Positions 2,322 to 59,458 of a stretch of 59,589 bases of DNA are shown in pieces. The number at the start of each line of letters is the position of its first letter. Position 1 is the stretch's first letter. The DNA comes from Candidatus Anderseniibacteriota bacterium (GTDB taxonomy: Bacteria; Patescibacteriota; JAUYIX01): NCBI GenBank assembly GCA_046350905.1, contig JAXLZN010000005.1, forward strand, positions 1 to 59,589. The letters are read 5' to 3'. Under the pieces are notes generated by a model. It did no database searches. It saw only the letters and a program-made list of their open reading frames with translations, and was not told where the DNA came from. The position numbers were made by a program, and so were the translations under genes.

Positions 2322-3005
2322 CTACCCCTTGTAGGCGACCTTGACTGCCGGACCCATTGTCGAGGCCAGGGTCACAGACTTGATGTAGACGCTCTTGATC
2401 GTCTTGGGTTTGGCAGACTTGATCGCCTCGAGGGCCGCGTCTACGTTCTTGACCAGGTCCTCCAGGGCAAAGGACTTCTTGCCGACCGGCAGGTGCACGC
2501 TGCCGTACTCGTCGTTCTTGAAGTTGGCCTTGCCGGCCTTGATCGCCTTGACCATGCGCGTGACGTCGGGACCGACCGTCTCAGTCTTGGGGTTGGGCAT
2601 CAGGCCGCGCGGGCCGAGCACCTTGGCCACCCGTCCGAGCTTGGGCATCATGTCAGGGGTCGCGACCAGCACGTCAAAGGCAATCTTGCCCTTGGTGATC
2701 TCGTCGATGATGTCCTGGCCGCCGACTAGGTCGGCGCCAGCGGCCTTGGCTTCGGCCTTCTTGGCGTCGCTGACCACTGCCGCAACCTTGACGTCCTTGC
2801 CGGTACCGGCCGGGAGCGCGACCGAGCCGCGCACGGTCTGGTCAGACTGCTTGGCGTCGACGCCGAGCCGCACGTGCAGCTCGACCGTCGCGTCGAACTT
2901 TTCGTTGCTCTTGTCTTTTACAAAGGTGAGCGCGTCCTTGACCGCGACCGGCTCCTTGGGAGCGGCTGCCACGAGGGCTTTGTAGCGTTTGCTGGTGTGA
3001 GCCAT
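2322..3005 (-). CDS. rplA: 50S ribosomal protein L1, copy A (intact)
   Basis: 227 aa; KFDATVELHVRLGVD, ATPDMMPKLGRVAKVLGPRGLMPNPKT, STMGP motifs. Confidence 0.99.
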   Translation of the reverse strand: MAHTSKRYKALVAAAPKEPVAVKDALTFVKDKSNEKFDATVELHVRLGVDAKQSDQTVRGSVALPAGTGKDVKVAAVVSDAKKAEAKAAGADLVGGQDIIDEITKGKIAFDVLVATPDMMPKLGRVAKVLGPRGLMPNPKTETVGPDVTRMVKAIKAGKANFKNDEYGSVHLPVGKKSFALEDLVKNVDAALEAIKSAKPKTIKSVYIKSVTLASTMGPAVKVAYKG

Positions 3006-3015
3006 GACGTGCGAA

Positions 3016-50268: not shown

Positions 50269-50365
50269 GGTGAGGTACTCAAGAGGCTGAAGAGGCGGGT
50301 TTGCTAAACCTGTAGGGCGTGGTTTTCGCCGCGCCGCGAGGGTTCGAATCCCTCCCTCACCGCCA
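50269..50365 (+). tRNA. tRNA-Ser (GCT)
   Basis: Cloverleaf with long variable arm, loop TTGCTAA, G discriminator, CCA. Confidence 0.94.
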
Positions 50366-52725: not shown

Positions 52726-53889
52726 CTAGGGCAGCAGCTTTTCGTACAGGGCGAGCAGGTCAGCCCCGACCGACTCGATCGTGTAGCGCTGGGCGTTGGC
52801 GCGCGCCCCCTCGGCGAGCTTGCCCCGCAAGGTCGCGTCACCGAGCAGCTCGAGCAAGGTCGCAGAAAACGCCGCCACGTCGCCGGTCTTGATCACCCGC
52901 CCGCTCACCCCGTCTGTCACGATTTCCGGCATTCCGCGTTCAGCAAACACCACGCCCGGCAAACCCGCAGCCTGCGCTTCGATCACCGAGACCGGCTGGT
53001 TCTCTGTCAGGCTCGTAGACGCAAAGACGTCAGAAGCGCCAACGGCGCGCACCAGATCGTCGCCGGTGAGCCGGCCCAAGAACAGCACCTGCTGCTCGAG
53101 GCCGGCACGTTTTACCGAGGCTTCGAGCTCAGCTCGCACCGGTCCATCGCCACCGATGAGGAGGCGGGCCTCAGGTAGCGCTCGCAGGACAGGTTCCGCC
53201 GCCTCGAGCAGCACCGGCAAGTTTTTCTCGTAGCTCACCCGACCAAAGTACAGCAGGGTCGGGCCGGTCAGCTTGAGCGCGGTTCGCCCCGCGTCACGCA
53301 AGCTGGGGGCTCGAGCAAAGCGCGCCACATCCACCGGGTTACGCAGCAGCTCGACCGGCACCGTCACGCCGCTCGTACGCAGATCATCCACCATGGCTTT
53401 CGACGGCGCCGTCACCAAATCGCAGCGGTTGTAAAAAGCAGAGACTACCTTACGCGCCATGGTGTTGGCCCCCGGCACGTCGAGCTTAACGTGCCCCATG
53501 TAGTCCTGAATAAACGTGTGGTGCGTGCCGACCAGCGGCACCTCAAACGTCTTGGCCAGTGCGACGCCTTCCCACCCGATCCCAAACGGCGTCTGGACGT
53601 GGATCAGGTTGGGGCGCGACTTGAGCGCCCAGCGCACGCTCTTGAGCACAGTCGGCAACGCTACGCGCATCTCTTTGTAGGTCGGCAGCTCCGCCGACGC
53701 GTAGCGAACCACGCGGTAGCCATCCGCTCTTGCCTGCGCATCTGCCTCGGCGCCGCCGTCTGGCGAGGTCACGGTCGCCACGGTCACCTCGTGGCCACGC
53801 CGCGCCAGCTCGCGCGCCAGGTTGGTAACCACGGTCGCCACCCCGTTGAGCTGGGGCGCGTAGGTATCGGTAAACAGCGCGACGTGCAT
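52726..53889 (-). CDS. GT4 glycosyltransferase, diacylglycerol glucosyltransferase-like
   Basis: FTDTYAPQLNGVAT, VGTHHT, FGRVSYEKN, SLTENQPVSVIEA. Confidence 0.9.
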   Translation of the reverse strand: MHVALFTDTYAPQLNGVATVVTNLARELARRGHEVTVATVTSPDGGAEADAQARADGYRVVRYASAELPTYKEMRVALPTVLKSVRWALKSRPNLIHVQTPFGIGWEGVALAKTFEVPLVGTHHTFIQDYMGHVKLDVPGANTMARKVVSAFYNRCDLVTAPSKAMVDDLRTSGVTVPVELLRNPVDVARFARAPSLRDAGRTALKLTGPTLLYFGRVSYEKNLPVLLEAAEPVLRALPEARLLIGGDGPVRAELEASVKRAGLEQQVLFLGRLTGDDLVRAVGASDVFASTSLTENQPVSVIEAQAAGLPGVVFAERGMPEIVTDGVSGRVIKTGDVAAFSATLLELLGDATLRGKLAEGARANAQRYTIESVGADLLALYEKLLP

Positions 53890-53902
53890 GACGCCGGTAA
53901 GC

Positions 53903-54751
53903 CTAGCGCGCGACGTGGGGCAGCGCACCCTCGCGTTCGAGGACGCGCACGAGCAGGTCGCCGTGGTGGGAGACGAGGTAGTGGCCGGCTTGCGGCACGC
54001 TCACCGCGTTGGCCTGCGCGTGGGTCAGTTCGCGCACCATCTCGCGTGCCTCGCGGCCGGTAAAGAGCGGGTCACCTTTGCCGCGCAAGATCAGCACCGG
54101 TGCGGTGATGCGCTCAAGCCCGCGCACGTGCAACCCAATGTACGTGATCATCAGCCGCAGGTTGACGTCGACCGGCATGCTCTGCAGCCCCTCAAACACC
54201 GAGCCCCAGTAGCTCTTGATCTTGACCAGATCGATGTGCTTGTAGCGCTTGCGTCGATCGAACTTGAGCACGTACGTCAGCCCGCGCGCCGGCCACTGCA
54301 GCAGCCAGCTGAGCCACCCCAGACCCCAGTACCACATCGGGTTGCGGTGGTTGGCTGCAACCAGGACGAACTCGCGGAAGTACCCGGGGTGCGCGAGCTC
54401 GTGCTGGAGCGCGATCGTGCCGCCAGCGGAGTAGCCGAGGACGATGACCGGTCGCGCGGGGGTGACGCCGACTTCGCCGAGCAGCGCGTGCACGTCTTCA
54501 ACGAACTCACGCAGCTCGTAGTCCCGCATGGTGCGGTGCTTGTCCGACAAGCCGTGGCCGCGCAGGTCGGGCACGATCGTCGAGTACCCGCGCGCGTTGA
54601 GTAGCGCGACGAGGGGCTCAAAGACGGTGTAGTTCCCGGCCCAGCCGTGCAGCAGCAGCACGGTGGGCGCGTTCGCTCCAGTTGCGGTGACCCTGTAGTG
54701 CAGCCGGTAGCTCCCGCGCGTGTAGTAGTGGTCTTCTGCCTTAGGCTGCAT
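53903..54751 (-). CDS. Alpha/beta hydrolase
   Basis: LLLHGW, PDLRGHGLS, nucleophile GYSAG, acid GDP, His in AGHY. Confidence 0.92.
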   Translation of the reverse strand: MQPKAEDHYYTRGSYRLHYRVTATGANAPTVLLLHGWAGNYTVFEPLVALLNARGYSTIVPDLRGHGLSDKHRTMRDYELREFVEDVHALLGEVGVTPARPVIVLGYSAGGTIALQHELAHPGYFREFVLVAANHRNPMWYWGLGWLSWLLQWPARGLTYVLKFDRRKRYKHIDLVKIKSYWGSVFEGLQSMPVDVNLRLMITYIGLHVRGLERITAPVLILRGKGDPLFTGREAREMVRELTHAQANAVSVPQAGHYLVSHHGDLLVRVLEREGALPHVAR

Positions 54752-54777
54752 GGCGCACAGACTAGCAGCTGAGCAAA

Positions 54778-55875
54778 GTGACGAACAGTGGTATGCTTGA
54801 GCTGGTTATGGAAAGATCTGTTTTCCCGCCAGGTAGGCAAGCTGACTTCCTTGCGTCGTGCATAGGCGTAGATACTAACGTGGCCCTGTTTGCACAGAGA
54901 CTTGGTGTCCATCCGCGGACGTTGAGCGATTGGCGTCGGGAGAAAAGCAGGGTCCCCAAAGACAAGCTTACGGAGATAGCGCGGCAAGCCGGTATTCACA
55001 TCCCGGAGTACGTAACGTACGTCGATGCCTTTGCGCATACATCTAGAGCTGGCAAACTCGGAGGTTCGGCCGTACTCAAGAAGTATGGAAGAGTTCCAGT
55101 CGACCCGTTGGCAAGGCTACAGAGTTGGCAAAAGTGGTGGGAAAAAACTGGCAGGCACAAGCAGTGGTCCTACAGTGAGGCTAAGCAAGTCATTTTACCA
55201 AAGCGAGACGTACGGTTGGCGGAATTCATTGGCATCATGCTTGGTGATGGCGGCGTAACTAGACACCAGATCACCATCACCCTAAATCGTGTAACGGATG
55301 CCAACTACGTTACATATGTGCGCAATCTACTAGTTGGACTCTTTGGCCTTCAGGTATGCTCATACGAAGGAAAGCACGATCTCGCAGTACGGTTGTATCT
55401 TTCGAGCGTACGGGTCGTTACCTTCTGTAAACAGAACGAGCTTTTCGTGGGTAACAAAGTTAAAAACAGGGCAGGTGCTCCGCATTGGGTCACACGCTCC
55501 ATGAGGTATTCGATGTGGTGTCTGAGAGGCATGATCGACACTGACGGATGTTTTTTTGTTGAACGGCACAAAATTGGTGGGCGTATTTACGAGTATCCAC
55601 GTATGCACCTCGTCAGTGCGAGTCCACGTTTACGATCTTTTGCGCTGCAAACACTCCGTAGGCTAGGCTTCCACCCACGGCAGCGAGAACGACACATCAC
55701 GCTAGAGGACCCTCAAGAAGTCGTTCGCTACCTACGCATCGTAGGTTCATCAAATTTGAAGCACCTTGCTCGTTCGCTGGAGGGGTGGCGGAGCCCGGTT
55801 GATCGCACGACTCTTGAAAAGTCGCAGACCCGCAAGGGTCTCGTGGGTTCGAATCCCACCCCCTCCGCCATGTGA
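54778..55875 (+). CDS. Double-motif LAGLIDADG endonuclease-like protein with N-terminal HTH
   Basis: LAEFIGIMLGDG and CLRGMIDTDG motifs; HPRTLSDWRREK HTH; lower GC (a sampled 60-nt line was 50% vs 63% in the flank). Start may be ATG 54793 or 54808. Confidence 0.85.
   Translation: MTNSGMLELVMERSVFPPGRQADFLASCIGVDTNVALFAQRLGVHPRTLSDWRREKSRVPKDKLTEIARQAGIHIPEYVTYVDAFAHTSRAGKLGGSAVLKKYGRVPVDPLARLQSWQKWWEKTGRHKQWSYSEAKQVILPKRDVRLAEFIGIMLGDGGVTRHQITITLNRVTDANYVTYVRNLLVGLFGLQVCSYEGKHDLAVRLYLSSVRVVTFCKQNELFVGNKVKNRAGAPHWVTRSMRYSMWCLRGMIDTDGCFFVERHKIGGRIYEYPRMHLVSASPRLRSFALQTLRRLGFHPRQRERHITLEDPQEVVRYLRIVGSSNLKHLARSLEGWRSPVDRTTLEKSQTRKGLVGSNPTPSAM
55779..55870 (+). tRNA. tRNA-Ser (TGA), embedded in the 3' end of the LAGLIDADG ORF
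   Basis: GGAGGGG...CCCCTCC-G-CCA, CGACT-CTTGAAA-AGTCG, long variable arm. Confidence 0.94.
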
Positions 55876-55890
55876 GCTACGATGAGCCCA

Positions 55891-56265
55891 ATGGCCGGCA
55901 AGAAACCAGCTAAGCTTGCGAGTGTGAGCGCCTACATCGCCGCGGCTCCCGCGCAGGCACGACCCATGCTCAGGCAGCTGCGCGCACTCACCAGAGCGGC
56001 CGCGCCCAGAGCCGCCGAAGGAATCAGCTACCGGATACCCTACTACAGCTACCATGGACGGCTGGTGTACTTCGGGGCATTCAGCAACCACTGCAGCCTG
56101 TTTGTTGCTAGCGGGTCTACCCTGCGAGCATTTGCACGTGAGCTTAGAGGCTACAAGATTTCTACCGGTACGCTGCAGTTTCCGTTCGGCACCAAGCTCC
56201 CGGGTGCGCTCATCAAGAAGCTCGTCAAAGCCCGCGTCAAAGAGAACGAGCGGCGCGTAGGCTGA
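55891..56265 (+). CDS. DUF1801 (YdhG-like) protein
   Basis: VSAYIAAAP, EGISYRIPYY, FSNHCSLF, GTLQFP; ATG 55891 lies 7 nt after TACGAT. Confidence 0.88.
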   Translation: MAGKKPAKLASVSAYIAAAPAQARPMLRQLRALTRAAAPRAAEGISYRIPYYSYHGRLVYFGAFSNHCSLFVASGSTLRAFARELRGYKISTGTLQFPFGTKLPGALIKKLVKARVKENERRVG

Positions 56266-56268
56266 CGA

Positions 56269-56297
56269 TTGACAGGAGCGTCAGATCCTGCTACAGA
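56269..56297 (+). promoter_or_regulatory. Sigma70-type promoter
   Basis: TTGACA-N17-TACAGA with TG at the extended -10 position. Confidence 0.6.
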
Positions 56298-56330
56298 AGA
56301 GGCAGGATTGTTCCCTCAGAAAGGAGAGAC

Positions 56331-56627
56331 ATGAAGGCACGCTGGACGCCAATCAAGCGGGCTGCCCGACGCGACTACCTCGCCTTTGGTGAGGTACGCC
56401 GGCAGATTGCGGCGCAGTCGGTGGGCAGGCTCGTGCGCATCACGCAATGCAAGAACCCTATCCACCCCCGGCACCACTACCCGGCACTCGACTGCCCGAT
56501 CCGCGCCAAGGGCCTCCTCCTCAAGATCGAGGCAACCAAGGAGTTTGCGGACGGGCAGCGCTACCTCGTCCACGTGGAGGATCGCGAACTCTGGCTCAGG
56601 GAGGGCGAGTTTACAGAAGCGGGATGA
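56331..56627 (+). CDS. Orphan hypothetical protein (98 aa)
   Basis: AAGGAGAG RBS, own promoter and downstream hairpin. Confidence 0.6.
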   Translation: MKARWTPIKRAARRDYLAFGEVRRQIAAQSVGRLVRITQCKNPIHPRHHYPALDCPIRAKGLLLKIEATKEFADGQRYLVHVEDRELWLREGEFTEAG

Positions 56628-56690: not shown

Positions 56691-57314
56691 ATGGCGATTC
56701 TTGGCTTTGGCCGCAAAAAAGAAACCCCGCCGCCTCCGCCCGAAGAAGGCCGCGCCAACCTGGCTAAGCAGCTCCGCGTCGGCACCCCGCGCCCTGCTGC
56801 GTCGGCACCCCAGGTCGCTCCCATCGCACCCGTGCAGCCCGCGGACGACGGCTCCCCCATCTACCAGTTCCAAACCACCATCCAGCGTGACGTACGTCGC
56901 GGACGGGGCTGGTACGTTGGCTGGTCGCTCTTCTTTGCAGCCGCAATCGGCGTCAACATCTGGCTGCACCAGTACCTCGGCGCCGTGGCGCTCACCCTGC
57001 TCGTCGTACTCCTCTTCGTCTCGGCCACGCAGCGGCCCAAGCCGATCACCGTGAGCCTCTACGCCAGCGGCCTGACTATCGGCAAGCAGCGCTACCCCTG
57101 GCACGAGTTCGTCAACTTTTGGATCCTGAGCGAACCGCCTGAGCTCAACCGCCTCTTCCTCAAACGACGGACGCGGGTGCTCAGCGAGCTGGCGATTGAG
57201 CTCGGAGACGAGCAGCCCTTGAAGATTCGCGACCTGCTGCTACCATGGCTGCCCGAAGATCCTACACGCGAGGAGAGCAGGGTCGACTTCATGACCCGCA
57301 GCCTCAAGCTCTAG
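56691..57314 (+). CDS. Two-TM hypothetical protein with C-terminal PH-like domain
   Basis: TM pair then GLTIGKQRYPWHEFVNFWI; ATG lies 6 nt after TACACT. Confidence 0.75.
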   Translation: MAILGFGRKKETPPPPPEEGRANLAKQLRVGTPRPAASAPQVAPIAPVQPADDGSPIYQFQTTIQRDVRRGRGWYVGWSLFFAAAIGVNIWLHQYLGAVALTLLVVLLFVSATQRPKPITVSLYASGLTIGKQRYPWHEFVNFWILSEPPELNRLFLKRRTRVLSELAIELGDEQPLKIRDLLLPWLPEDPTREESRVDFMTRSLKL

Positions 57315-57325
57315 GTTCACGGCAC

Positions 57326-57401
57326 GTGCCCGTAGCTCAGTGGATAGAGCATCAGCTTGCGGAGCTGGGGGTCGCAGGTTCGAATCCTGCCGGGCACACC
57401 A
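57326..57401 (+). tRNA. tRNA-Arg (GCG)
   Basis: 76-nt cloverleaf, anticodon arm TCAGC-TTGCGGA-GCTGG, CCA. Confidence 0.93.
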
Positions 57402-59458
57402 GGGGTCTCACGACCCCCGTACTAGCGCTGCGCGGAGTTGGTCCCGCTGCAGCGGCTGATTTACGCGCGCTCGAGGTCAAGAGCGCGGGCGACCTGCTCG
57501 AGCTGCTCCCGACCCGCCACGACACGTACGGTCCCGCCGTGCCGCTCGCGACCGTACGTCCTGACGAGACCGTGCTCGTGCGCGCACGGCTGACGTCGCT
57601 GTCGTCCCGCCGGAGCTTTCGCCGTCGTTTGACCGTGCAGGAGGGGCTGCTGTCAGACGAGAGCGCGAGCCTGGCGGTGACGTGGTTCAACCAGCCCTGG
57701 CTGGCGCAGCTGCGTGGGCAAGAGCTGGTGGTGCGCGGCCAGGTGCGAACGTACCGCGGCACGCCCACGCTGGTGAGTCCTGAGGTCGTACGCGACCCGG
57801 TCGTGCTGTCAGGTGGCCAGGCGCTCGTGCCGGTCTACCCCCTGTCGGGCCGGCTGACCCAGCGTCAGGTTCGCGGCTGGGTGCGGCAGGCGCTGCCGCT
57901 GCTGCGGCGTGAGCGTGAGGTGCTGCCGCCAGACGTGGTCGAGCGCCACCGGCTGCTCGACCGTGCCGCGGCGCTGCTCCAGCTGCACGTTCCGTCCACG
58001 CCTGCAGCGCTCGCCGAGGCGCGTCGACGGATGACCTTTGAGGAGCTGCTGACCCTCTCGCTCTTTGTCCTGCGCGAACGTCTCCAGCTCCAGCACGTCG
58101 CGGCCACGCCCATCCCGATTGATCGCGACCTGCTACGGCGCTTCGTTGCGTCGTTGCCGTTTACCTTGACCCAAGCGCAGCGCACGGCGGCGTGGCAGAT
58201 CGTGCAGGACCTCGCCAAGCCCCACCCCATGAACCGTTTGCTCGAAGGCGACGTCGGCTCTGGCAAAACTGTCGTAGCAGCAATGGCGCTCCTGTCCGCC
58301 GCGGCGGCTGGCGGGCAAGCGGTGCTGCTGGCACCGACCGTGGTGCTAGCCCGGCAGCACGCCGCGACCGTGCGCAAGCTGCTCGCACCGTTTGGCATTC
58401 CAGTCGGCCTGTGGGCTGGACCGACCCACGAGGACGGCGCGGGGAGAGTCGTTACCCGTGCAGCGCTGCTCCGCCAGCTCGCCGACGGACGGCTGCCAGT
58501 GCTCATCGCCACGCACGGCGTGCTGCAGCCGTCAGTCAAGTTTCGTCGGCTACTCCTCTTTGCCGTGGACGAGCAGCACCGCTTTGGCGTGGAGCAGCGG
58601 CGCGCGCTCAAGGCCAAGTCGGTAGTGTCCGGGCAGCTCCCCCACCTCCTCTCGATGACGGCGACCCCGATTCCGCGCTCGTTAGCCCTGACGCTGTACG
58701 GCGATCTCGACCTGTCAGTGCTCGATGAAAAACCGGCAGGCCGGCCGGCGATTGCTACGCGGGTCGTGACCTCGCGTGGGATCAAGAAAGCGCTCGAGCA
58801 CGTGCGGGCGCGCGCCGCCACGGGTGAGCAGAGCTTTGTGATGTACCCGCTCATCGAGGCCAGCGAGGAGGTGGCGGCGCGCGCCGTCCTCGCCGAGCTA
58901 CCTGAGCTCAAACGTTCGCTCAAGGGGCTGCGGGTCGGCGTGCTGCACGGCAAGCTACCCGAGGACGACAAGCTCGCCGTTATGCAGCAGTTCCGCGCGC
59001 ACGAGCTCGACGTGCTCGCGGCTACGCCGGTCATCGAGGTCGGCATCGACATCCCCAACGCTACGACCATGCTCGTGATGAGCGCGGAACGCTTTGGCTT
59101 GGCACAGCTCCACCAGCTGCGCGGCCGCATCGGACGCGGCACCGAGGCCTCGACCTGCCTGCTCTGCCCCGACATCGCGACCCCCGCGACGCGCAAGCGA
59201 CTCGATCTGATGGTTCGCTCCAACGATGGGTTTGCTCTGGCCGAGGCTGACCTCGAGCTACGTGGTCCGGGCGAGCTCTTCGGCACCCGCCAGCACGGTC
59301 AGGTGCGCTTTAAGTACGCCACGGTCTTTGATGCCCGCACGCTCGCGGCTGCCAAGGACGAGGCCGCCCGTCTCCTGACACAGGATCGAACCCTGCAGTC
59401 TTGGCCGCTCCTCCGCGCGGCCGTGGGCAAGGTCGCGACTCAGCTCCACCTGGAGTAA
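57401..59458 (+). CDS. recG: ATP-dependent DNA helicase RecG (start codon uncertain)
   Basis: LRGVGP N-terminus, LPFTLTQAQ, MNRLLEGDVGSGKT, VDEQHRF, MTATPIPRSL, ERFGLAQLHQLRGRIGRG, LRGPGE. Confidence 0.96.
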   Translation, partial: RGLTTPVLALRGVGPAAAADLRALEVKSAGDLLELLPTRHDTYGPAVPLATVRPDETVLVRARLTSLSSRRSFRRRLTVQEGLLSDESASLAVTWFNQPWLAQLRGQELVVRGQVRTYRGTPTLVSPEVVRDPVVLSGGQALVPVYPLSGRLTQRQVRGWVRQALPLLRREREVLPPDVVERHRLLDRAAALLQLHVPSTPAALAEARRRMTFEELLTLSLFVLRERLQLQHVAATPIPIDRDLLRRFVASLPFTLTQAQRTAAWQIVQDLAKPHPMNRLLEGDVGSGKTVVAAMALLSAAAAGGQAVLLAPTVVLARQHAATVRKLLAPFGIPVGLWAGPTHEDGAGRVVTRAALLRQLADGRLPVLIATHGVLQPSVKFRRLLLFAVDEQHRFGVEQRRALKAKSVVSGQLPHLLSMTATPIPRSLALTLYGDLDLSVLDEKPAGRPAIATRVVTSRGIKKALEHVRARAATGEQSFVMYPLIEASEEVAARAVLAELPELKRSLKGLRVGVLHGKLPEDDKLAVMQQFRAHELDVLAATPVIEVGIDIPNATTMLVMSAERFGLAQLHQLRGRIGRGTEASTCLLCPDIATPATRKRLDLMVRSNDGFALAEADLELRGPGELFGTRQHGQVRFKYATVFDARTLAAAKDEAARLLTQDRTLQSWPLLRAAVGKVATQLHLE

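Follow-up and report, generated by a model that had tools for sequence, protein, structure and literature searches.

Homing endonuclease genes (HEGs) stay harmless to their hosts inside self-splicing introns or inteins or, in phages, between genes. Phages and integrative and conjugative elements (ICEs) insert at the 3' ends of tRNA genes (att sites), restoring the tRNA with a carried copy of its end. WhiA, a domesticated LAGLIDADG transcription factor with a C-terminal helix-turn-helix (HTH) domain, no longer has the catalytic residues and is conserved universally within its clades. Here we describe a free-standing homing endonuclease gene, outside both the intron and the intein class, on a contig of 59,589 nucleotides from a Candidatus Anderseniibacteriota bacterium (JAXLZN010000005.1; the whole stretch is referred to below as the window). 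The gene, an HTH-LAGLIDADG open reading frame (ORF), stands in front of a tRNA-Ser(UGA) gene and runs through it in frame. Comparison with its homologues suggests that it is probably part of an intron-less homing cassette, which invades tRNA-Ser genes and supplies a replacement tRNA or the 5' part of one.

Free-standing endonucleases with intron-less homing are known from T-even phages, among them SegB in the tRNA gene cluster of T4 (PMC2988022; SegB also PMC13096335). The gene in the window shares with this type its position between genes, outside any intron or intein and beside tRNA, as well as a presumed spread by cutting of the endonuclease-less allele with co-conversion of the flanks, the linked allele presumably being protected by sequence differences. 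The T-even enzymes are of the GIY-YIG or HNH type, whereas the present one is a LAGLIDADG protein with an N-terminal HTH; unlike the phage genes, this one and its relatives are chromosomal in cellular Patescibacteria, with no phage match, and unlike SegB they are locked to a single tRNA species in isoacceptor-specific lineages, and have an ORF that is joined to a 5' stub of tRNA origin and in many cases extends into the tRNA.

LAGLIDADG endonucleases have been described in insertion sequences and introns of rRNA genes in bacteria of the candidate phyla radiation (CPR), in a paper that makes no mention of tRNA (PMC11270868). Those elements and the archaeal rRNA-intron enzyme I-Tsp061I (PDB 2DCH), which is the best sequence and fold match of the window protein, share with it a monomeric double-motif fold and a conserved structural-RNA gene as target, and the CPR elements also share its phylum-level hosts. 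The rRNA elements, however, interrupt the RNA gene and leave its transcript, whereas here the tRNA is uninterrupted and the gene stands in front of it; the HTH domain, too, is an addition relative to them. With tRNA-integrating elements the gene has in common an essential tRNA gene as conserved landing site, function kept by a duplicated piece of tRNA, and a stub of the old gene left behind; those elements rely on tyrosine or serine recombinases and target the 3' end of the tRNA, whereas a homing endonuclease and the tRNA 5' end are involved here, and the stub appears to have been taken over as promoter and start codon of the nuclease. WhiA (PDB 8DY9, among the fold matches) likewise joins a LAGLIDADG scaffold to an HTH, but the present proteins keep their acidic residues, carry the HTH at the N-terminus and are patchily distributed.

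The features that define the intron and intein classes were looked for and are absent, and the gene is placed outside both for that reason. An intron was rejected since the tRNA is contiguous by both ARAGORN and Rfam and zero Rfam intron matches occur in the window, as anticipated from the letters alone; insertion as an intein or within a host gene was rejected since no host protein frame surrounds the ORF.

The endonuclease gene and the tRNA it runs into

The original prediction held that a LAGLIDADG ORF passes in frame through an entire, intact tRNA-Ser(TGA) and stops just past the CCA; the ORF listing, ARAGORN and Rfam bear this out (RF00005 score of the tRNA 52.6 bits, cut-off 29), and the final 32 codons of the ORF are tRNA sequence. 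In window coordinates, the parts of the gene are:

54778..55875, + strand: HTH-LAGLIDADG ORF, 365 aa, GTG start at 54778, from the ORF listing
54793..55875, + strand: endonuclease ORF from its likely start; the homologous protein part ends at 55776, and tRNA codons run from 55777
54835..54990, + strand: N-terminal HTH domain, four modelled helices (residues 10-61), with the RTLSDWRRE recognition-helix region at 54880-54942
55216..55254, + strand: LAGLIDADG motif 1 (LAEFIGIMLGDGG), LGDGG, acidic residue kept; G146, D147 and G148 invariant in 31 sequences
55519..55551, + strand: LAGLIDADG motif 2 (CLRGMIDTDGC), acidic residue kept; D244, T245, D246 and G247 invariant in 31 sequences
55779..55870, + strand: tRNA-Ser(UGA), intact, CCA encoded (ARAGORN and Rfam RF00005)
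55873-55875, + strand: TGA stop reached by the ORF, two bases after the CCA end and 6 nt before a DUF1801 gene (55882-56265)

Judged from its sequence and its modelled fold, the ORF is an intact gene for a monomeric, double-motif LAGLIDADG protein with an HTH domain, and the protein looks functional. It matches Pfam LAGLIDADG_3 (PF14528) at 41.5 bits (cut-off 22.5; E 1.7e-10) and keeps 21 of 21 invariant family positions, both catalytic acidic residues (LGDGG and IDTDG) among them, in agreement with the earlier statement that both motifs had retained these residues. The N-terminal HTH that had also been proposed is supported by a Pfam HTH_3 match under cut-off (E 8.8e-4), by PF01381 assignments precomputed for several homologues, and by the AlphaFold2 model (mean pLDDT, the model's per-residue confidence, 90.2), in which the first ~60 residues form a helix-turn-helix bundle. 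When the model was searched with Foldseek, the best PDB match was I-Tsp061I, over the C-terminal 200 residues (E 8.7e-12, TM 0.73; profile E 6e-9), followed by the endonuclease domains of VMA inteins, I-AniI, I-DmoI and I-OnuI; model and matches together support a pseudo-dimeric alpha-beta-beta-alpha-beta-beta-alpha fold.

The closest relative, at locus L003, is likewise flanked by glycosyltransferase and abhydrolase genes; identity between the window and L003 is 57% for the endonucleases and 70-73% for the products of the neighbouring genes. By the Nei-Gojobori method this pair gave pN 0.30 and pS 0.74, the latter saturated, with dN/dS ~0.11; the 323-codon endonuclease frame is unbroken, and the endonuclease is under purifying selection.

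The gene lies in a metagenome-assembled genome (MAG) of 795 kb (64% GC, 78% complete, 28 contigs), and its lower GC relative to the flanks, noted at the outset, was found by every measure used. Over the whole ORF, GC is 0.51 and GC at third codon positions (GC3) 0.52, against GC 0.66 in the adjacent genes and GC3 of 0.89 in the abhydrolase and 0.81 in the glycosyltransferase gene; along the ORF, GC dips to 0.48-0.55 in surroundings of 0.62-0.70. The L003 endonuclease behaves similarly, with GC3 0.585 against >0.8 in its neighbours. Composition and divergence seem easier to reconcile with arrivals that were separate or later, or with an AT bias that persisted, than with a long shared residence.

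Linkage to tRNA-Ser across the family and the proposed cassette

A protein search returned 123 homologues of ~325-350 aa and 30-57% identity, which span ~88-90% of the 365-aa query and end where the tRNA begins. Those with a named source belong to the Patescibacteria group, plus two to Omnitrophota, and are labelled hypothetical, HTH-domain or LAGLIDADG; at least 560 loci turned up when one genome per species was scanned. Linkage was counted over the distinct full-length members with downstream sequence among the fetched loci (n=86), and in all 86 the next same-strand feature is a tRNA-Ser: GCU in 61, UGA in 20, CGA in 3 and GGA in 2. The stop codon lies -96 to +39 nt from the tRNA start, apart from two outliers (+178 and +269), and the window gene, at -96, is the extreme. 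Since the whole family shows it, the adjacency to tRNA-Ser is far beyond chance. A full-text literature search found no account of LAGLIDADG genes flanking tRNA genes in CPR bacteria; the family is large, widespread in the ultra-small CPR/Patescibacteria, mostly annotated as hypothetical and apparently undescribed. No phage homologues of the endonuclease were found, and a phage vector is accordingly not supported.

On a tree of 90 proteins, 10 changes suffice to explain the anticodon labels; shuffled labels needed 26.8, and none of 200 shuffles reached so low a count. All but one of the 20 UGA-type rows group in a single well-supported clade. This clustering indicates that lineages are target-specific, with occasional switches between isoacceptors. 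Shorter, LAGLIDADG-only relatives (~200-276 aa) stand directly 5' of tRNA-Ser(GGA/UGA), tRNA-Tyr(GUA) or tRNA-Gln(CUG). Those at tRNA-Tyr and tRNA-Gln (L013/L124 in G001, L126 in G255, and L014/L131, L127, L128 and L130) match the family profile at E 1e-23 to 1e-53 and have their stop -38 to +14 nt from the tRNA start.

The linked tRNAs tend to differ from free ones in the D-arm. A canonical D-arm (TG NNN GAG NGG) was found in 2 of 20 HEG-linked tRNA-Ser(UGA) genes and in 24 of 30 HEG-free ones, the latter collected across the phylum with a search pattern blind to the D-arm (Fisher 1.3e-6, in a test that ignores phylogeny). The same distinction exists within genus g2, in which the free allele (G001) has a canonical D-arm and the linked alleles (G004 and G005) do not. 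Compared with HEG-free relatives, the D-loop of the window tRNA has 2 extra nt, and compared with L003 it lacks 1 nt; an enlargement by 2-3 nt is common to the window and L003.

Distribution of the gene is patchy. Matches occur in 7 of 61 relatives and in 37 of 401 genomes of the phylum, inteins included, of which about a dozen are full-length (~3%). In family f1, to which the window genome (G000) belongs, the gene is present at tRNA-Ser(UGA) in G000, G004 and G005 and absent there in G001, G002 and G003, although G001 shares its genus with G004 and G005. An empty site had been proposed as a check, and G003 carries one in synteny: glycosyltransferase, abhydrolase, 73 nt, then tRNA-Ser(UGA). 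Given this distribution, the gene does not behave as one that is fixed and inherited vertically, like WhiA, without empty sites; together with the absence of intron and intein, the presence/absence polymorphism agrees with the proposal of a free-standing LAGLIDADG homing gene at tRNA-Ser. A filled/empty comparison of G001 with G004/G005 aligned only the tRNA, the flanks not being syntenic.

The f1 loci offered further observations. In the HEG-free genome G002 (L096, G002:C55), a 123-aa PD-(D/E)XK endonuclease gene (1096-1467, - strand; Pfam PDDEXK_5, E 1.3e-15) is divergently oriented to this tRNA-Ser(UGA), 33 nt upstream, which suggests that a second nuclease family uses this flank. In the window, an unusually long tRNA-Ser(gct) (50269-50365, 97 nt) precedes tRNA-Ser(tga) by 5.4 kb, whereas genus g2 (L011) has tRNA-Ser(gct), the endonuclease gene and tRNA-Ser(tga) side by side; the glycosyltransferase and abhydrolase block thus comes between the two tRNA-Ser genes only in the lineage of the window. 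GC has shifted markedly within this one family, being 41-51% at the sister-genus loci L096, L099, L009 and L011 (G002-G005) and 64% in the window genome.

A broken resident tRNA was found in the GGA subfamily. In G296 and G031, the 3' half of a tRNA-Ser(GGA) (~positions 38-90) lies just upstream of the endonuclease gene, on the other strand:

L117 (G296), reverse-complement 1367-1416, and the equivalent in L118 (G031), opposite strand: truncated tRNA-Ser(GGA), matching the intact tRNA of L147, 2618-2707 (G057)

G057, of the same genus as G296, is HEG-free, and its intact tRNA-Ser(GGA) matches the remnant. The endonuclease-linked tRNAs of G296 and G031, on the other hand, are 97.8% identical to each other and very different from that of G057. 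A foreign linked tRNA beside a remnant of the native one suggests that the GGA cassette came with a tRNA of its own and disrupted the resident gene. Flank identity is 83%/73% between G296 and G057 and 66-70% between G296 and G031, and presence thus does not follow relatedness. G057 against G296 was rejected as a simple empty site, the resident tRNA being in the opposite orientation, and the pair is used for the broken-tRNA argument only. A 243-aa ORF beside the GGA cassette reads through the tRNA remnant.

The 5' end of the gene also resembles tRNA. Most ORFs of the family start within a degenerate tRNA-Ser copy that covers its first ~26 nt, directly behind a -10 box, and nearly all follow the consensus TGnTAtAAT-GGAGrt-ATG-GCT-GAr-TCG-TTT-AAA; its counterpart in the tRNA-Ser 5' end is GGAGAGG TG GCT GAG TGG TTT AAA GC, the start codon corresponding to tRNA positions 7-9. 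Over positions 1-17, base frequencies of stub and tRNA-Ser are nearly the same. When ORF positions -6 to +20 were compared with tRNA positions 1-26, mean identity was 11.1 of 26, against 7.4 of 26 for other ATG-anchored 26-mers from the same loci, and reached p<=0.05 in 45 and p<=0.01 in 29 of the 86 loci. With the -10 box directly adjoining the stub, transcription would begin at the ATG or just ahead of it, which suggests that the mRNA is leaderless or near-leaderless in the family.

In the window, this region comprises:

54752..54792, + strand: divergent intergenic spacer of 41 nt, between the abhydrolase start (54751, - strand) and the ORF
54787..54812, + strand: putative degenerate relic of the tRNA-Ser-like stub and ancestral start, from comparison with L018 (ggagtaATGCTTGAGAAGGTT), L003 and the consensus GGAGrtATGGCTGArTCG

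Besides the GTG at 54778, the ORF has in-frame ATG codons at 54793 and 54808. The window bases GGT ATG CTT GAG CTG GTT ATG (54790-54810) align with ggagta ATG CTT GAG AAG GTT in L018, and the N-terminus MLELV matches the family's MAELV; on these grounds ATG 54793 is taken as the likely start. The promoter or promoters must sit in the spacer. Relatives carry a strong TGnTATAAT box where the window has no consensus promoter, and a scan of 54600-56400 for sigma-70 consensus promoters and terminators detected none; TATGCT (54792-54797) could act as a -10 box for ATG 54808. The window stub scores poorly on a matrix of the tRNA 5' end (rank 358), and its descent from tRNA is suggested chiefly by the alignment with relatives. 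At L003 the ancestral ATG opens a 6-codon mini-ORF (2986-3006, MLESYI), whose closing TGA overlaps the main start codon (ATGA); the arrangement resembles translational coupling, a leftover of the degraded tRNA-like start. A repeat search of 53800-56600 found neither a copy of tRNA sequence nor terminal repeats flanking the ORF.

Taken together, the tRNA-like starts, the broken tRNA and the variant D-arms suggest that the cassette brings a replacement tRNA or its 5' part. We propose a layout of promoter, degenerate tRNA-Ser 5' copy supplying the start codon, endonuclease ORF and complete tRNA-Ser. The enzyme would cut ordinary tRNA-Ser alleles between the D-arm and the anticodon arm, a placement suggested by the end of the stub at about position 26 and the beginning of the GGA remnant at about position 38. 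Repair from the cassette allele would then copy the endonuclease gene along with the variant-D-arm tRNA or its 5' part, which is presumably resistant to cutting. On this scheme the essential tRNA would never be lost, an intron would be unnecessary, and RNase P would free the tRNA from any read-through transcript. We infer that the enzyme cuts tRNA-Ser genes, that the linked allele resists it, that gene and tRNA are co-transcribed and that the element is active at present. The original prediction had placed the target at the 5' boundary of the tRNA; the tRNA 1-26 stubs, the broken resident tRNA and the variant D-arms instead indicate that it probably lies inside the tRNA. In the window, the cassette occupies the only tRNA-Ser(UGA) gene, the sole UGA isoacceptor found in the assembly, and its ORF has no stop of its own.

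Several points weigh against the homing cassette. The association of variant D-arms with linkage was tested, as stated, without regard to phylogeny, and the four f1 copies form one clade, which is equally compatible with old vertical inheritance plus loss. Metagenome scans and the g2 comparison found no near-identical HEG-plus/HEG-minus strain pair that would show a recent event. The window copy itself, with its badly degraded stub and no consensus promoter, could be poorly expressed. Finally, the stub is no closer to its own tRNA (11.13) than to the tRNAs of other loci (11.31; permutation 334/5000). Renewed duplication or concerted evolution of the stub was rejected on this result, and the stub is better regarded as an old family feature than as a scar renewed with each homing event.

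Read-through of the tRNA and other explanations

Passage of the frame through the whole tRNA, which the original prediction had presented as a special feature of the element, proved peculiar to the window. Relatives stop at a TAG, TAA or TGA in the D-loop or, in 53 of 61 GCU-type copies, before the tRNA; the commonest distance in the UGA type is -14, where the stop consists of T13-A14-G/A15 of the D-loop. L003 reads ...agc ctt ggt TGA and thus stops at the D-loop TGA. The corresponding stretch of the window is:

55794..55802, + strand: D-loop stretch CCCGGTTGA, in which TGA 55800-55802, the stop used by L003 (CCTTGGTTGA), is out of frame

The window has cccggttga where L003 has ccttggttga, and this D-loop, one base shorter, puts the TGA out of frame. 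Of the three frames of the window tRNA a single one has stops, both of them TGA (positions 22 and 37), and the ORF uses an open frame. A listed 737-aa helicase-like ORF (57245..59458, + strand) served as a control: it likewise spans a tRNA gene, tRNA-Arg(gcg) at 57326-57401, and its start was almost certainly called too far upstream, in a genome with high GC and few stops. Read-throughs come cheaply in a genome this poor in stops (64% GC). The full read-through is therefore incidental, a 1-nt frame accident peculiar to the window and within chance, and the 32 residues encoded by the tRNA are a by-product. The idea of a functional C-terminal tail supplied by the tRNA was rejected, since the homologues terminate either ahead of the tRNA or within its first 5-17 codons, and their tails are unrelated.

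It had also been proposed that the overlap is adaptive. In this explanation RNase P, by cutting at the tRNA 5' end, would leave a non-stop endonuclease mRNA to be cleared by transfer-messenger RNA (tmRNA), so that tRNA maturation throttles the nuclease. Homing endonucleases need low expression, and the stop lies inside the mature tRNA in 17 of the 20 UGA-type and all three CGA-type members. This genome encodes both tmRNA (100 bits) and RNase P RNA (160 bits), which makes a non-stop mRNA plausible where the stop lies inside or beyond the tRNA. However, only 8 of the 61 GCU-type stops overlap the tRNA, and both GGA-type members stop before it, so that the family does not need the feature; with most GCU-type members ending before the tRNA, a non-stop mRNA is not a family-wide design. 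GCU-type loci have, in addition, a second -10-like box 8-12 nt before the tRNA (TAGGAT, TATAGT or TATAAT, often with TG upstream; for example at L020, L021, L029, L061, L092 and L116), which often holds the endonuclease stop codon. The tRNA-Ser(GCU) genes may therefore retain a promoter of their own inside the ORF end, and co-transcription is not obligatory. As the position of the window stop beyond the tRNA is owed only to the 1-nt D-loop difference, we regard adaptive coupling as unlikely, though worth keeping in view.

A second explanation holds that the gene is a decaying relic, inactive or immobile and drifting in this lineage, and that the lost start, promoter and stop are early signs of its decay. 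The tRNA-like start and -10 box are indeed degenerate in both the window and L003, no promoter was detected in the window, the proper stop has been lost, and the endonuclease has diverged faster than its neighbours. Set against this are the unbroken 323-codon frame, the retention of all invariant and catalytic residues, the confidently folded model and the dN/dS of 0.11, although dS is saturated; a decaying relic thus appears rather improbable.

The read-through could also be an assembly or consensus error, in which one base missing from the CCC run of the D-loop (55794-55796) hides the usual TGA stop. One added base would give agc-ccn-ggt-tga, exactly as in L003, and the source is an incomplete MAG in many contigs; but short-read assemblies are not prone to error in a run of 3 bases, these tRNAs naturally differ in D-loop length and the tRNA score is normal, and we consider such an error improbable. 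Two metagenome pattern scans found no near-identical contig or strain and no further members of the window's subclade, and an exact-protein look-up of the window endonuclease returned no match.

Least probable of all, and hard to credit, is a domesticated, vertically inherited DNA-binding protein of the WhiA kind that regulates or assists expression of the adjacent tRNA-Ser and is no longer a mobile nuclease: the strong purifying selection, the added HTH domain, the strictly conserved position beside one gene class, the monophyly of the f1 copies and the appearance of WhiA at rank 10 of the fold matches are in its favor, but both of the catalytic acidic residues that WhiA lost are invariant here, a full-length copy occurs in only ~3% of sampled Patescibacteria genomes with presence and absence within family and genus, a syntenic site stands empty, the host genes differ greatly in GC3, and the GGA-type cassette has a broken resident tRNA at its side.

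What a tRNA-borne cassette would mean

If the proposed mechanism holds, the homing cassette would be a natural cleave-and-rescue drive on tRNA genes, and it would explain odd tRNA-Ser variants and tRNA fragments in CPR genomes. It would also bear on tRNA annotation and on gene calling, the latter because the ORFs run into tRNAs, and would provide new long-target nucleases with predictable tRNA-gene targets.

More tentatively, and with rather less confidence than doubt, the loci may form a phylum-wide guild of 'home-and-rescue' drive cassettes, in which a LAGLIDADG gene welded to a cleavage-resistant tRNA or 5' module overwrites the resident tRNA-Ser (or, in relatives, tRNA-Tyr or tRNA-Gln), turns what is left of the destroyed tRNA into its promoter and leaderless start codon, and relies on RNase P in place of splicing. 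Were this so, the 5' side of tRNA genes would be a third phenotypically silent harbour for HEGs, beside introns and inteins, and the cassettes could drive the unusual D-arm diversity of tRNA-Ser in the phylum. A whole family in cellular genomes is tied to one essential gene class, and it appears to have solved the problem of harmlessness by carrying a replacement tRNA or the 5' part of one and by adopting the promoter and first bases of the old tRNA gene.

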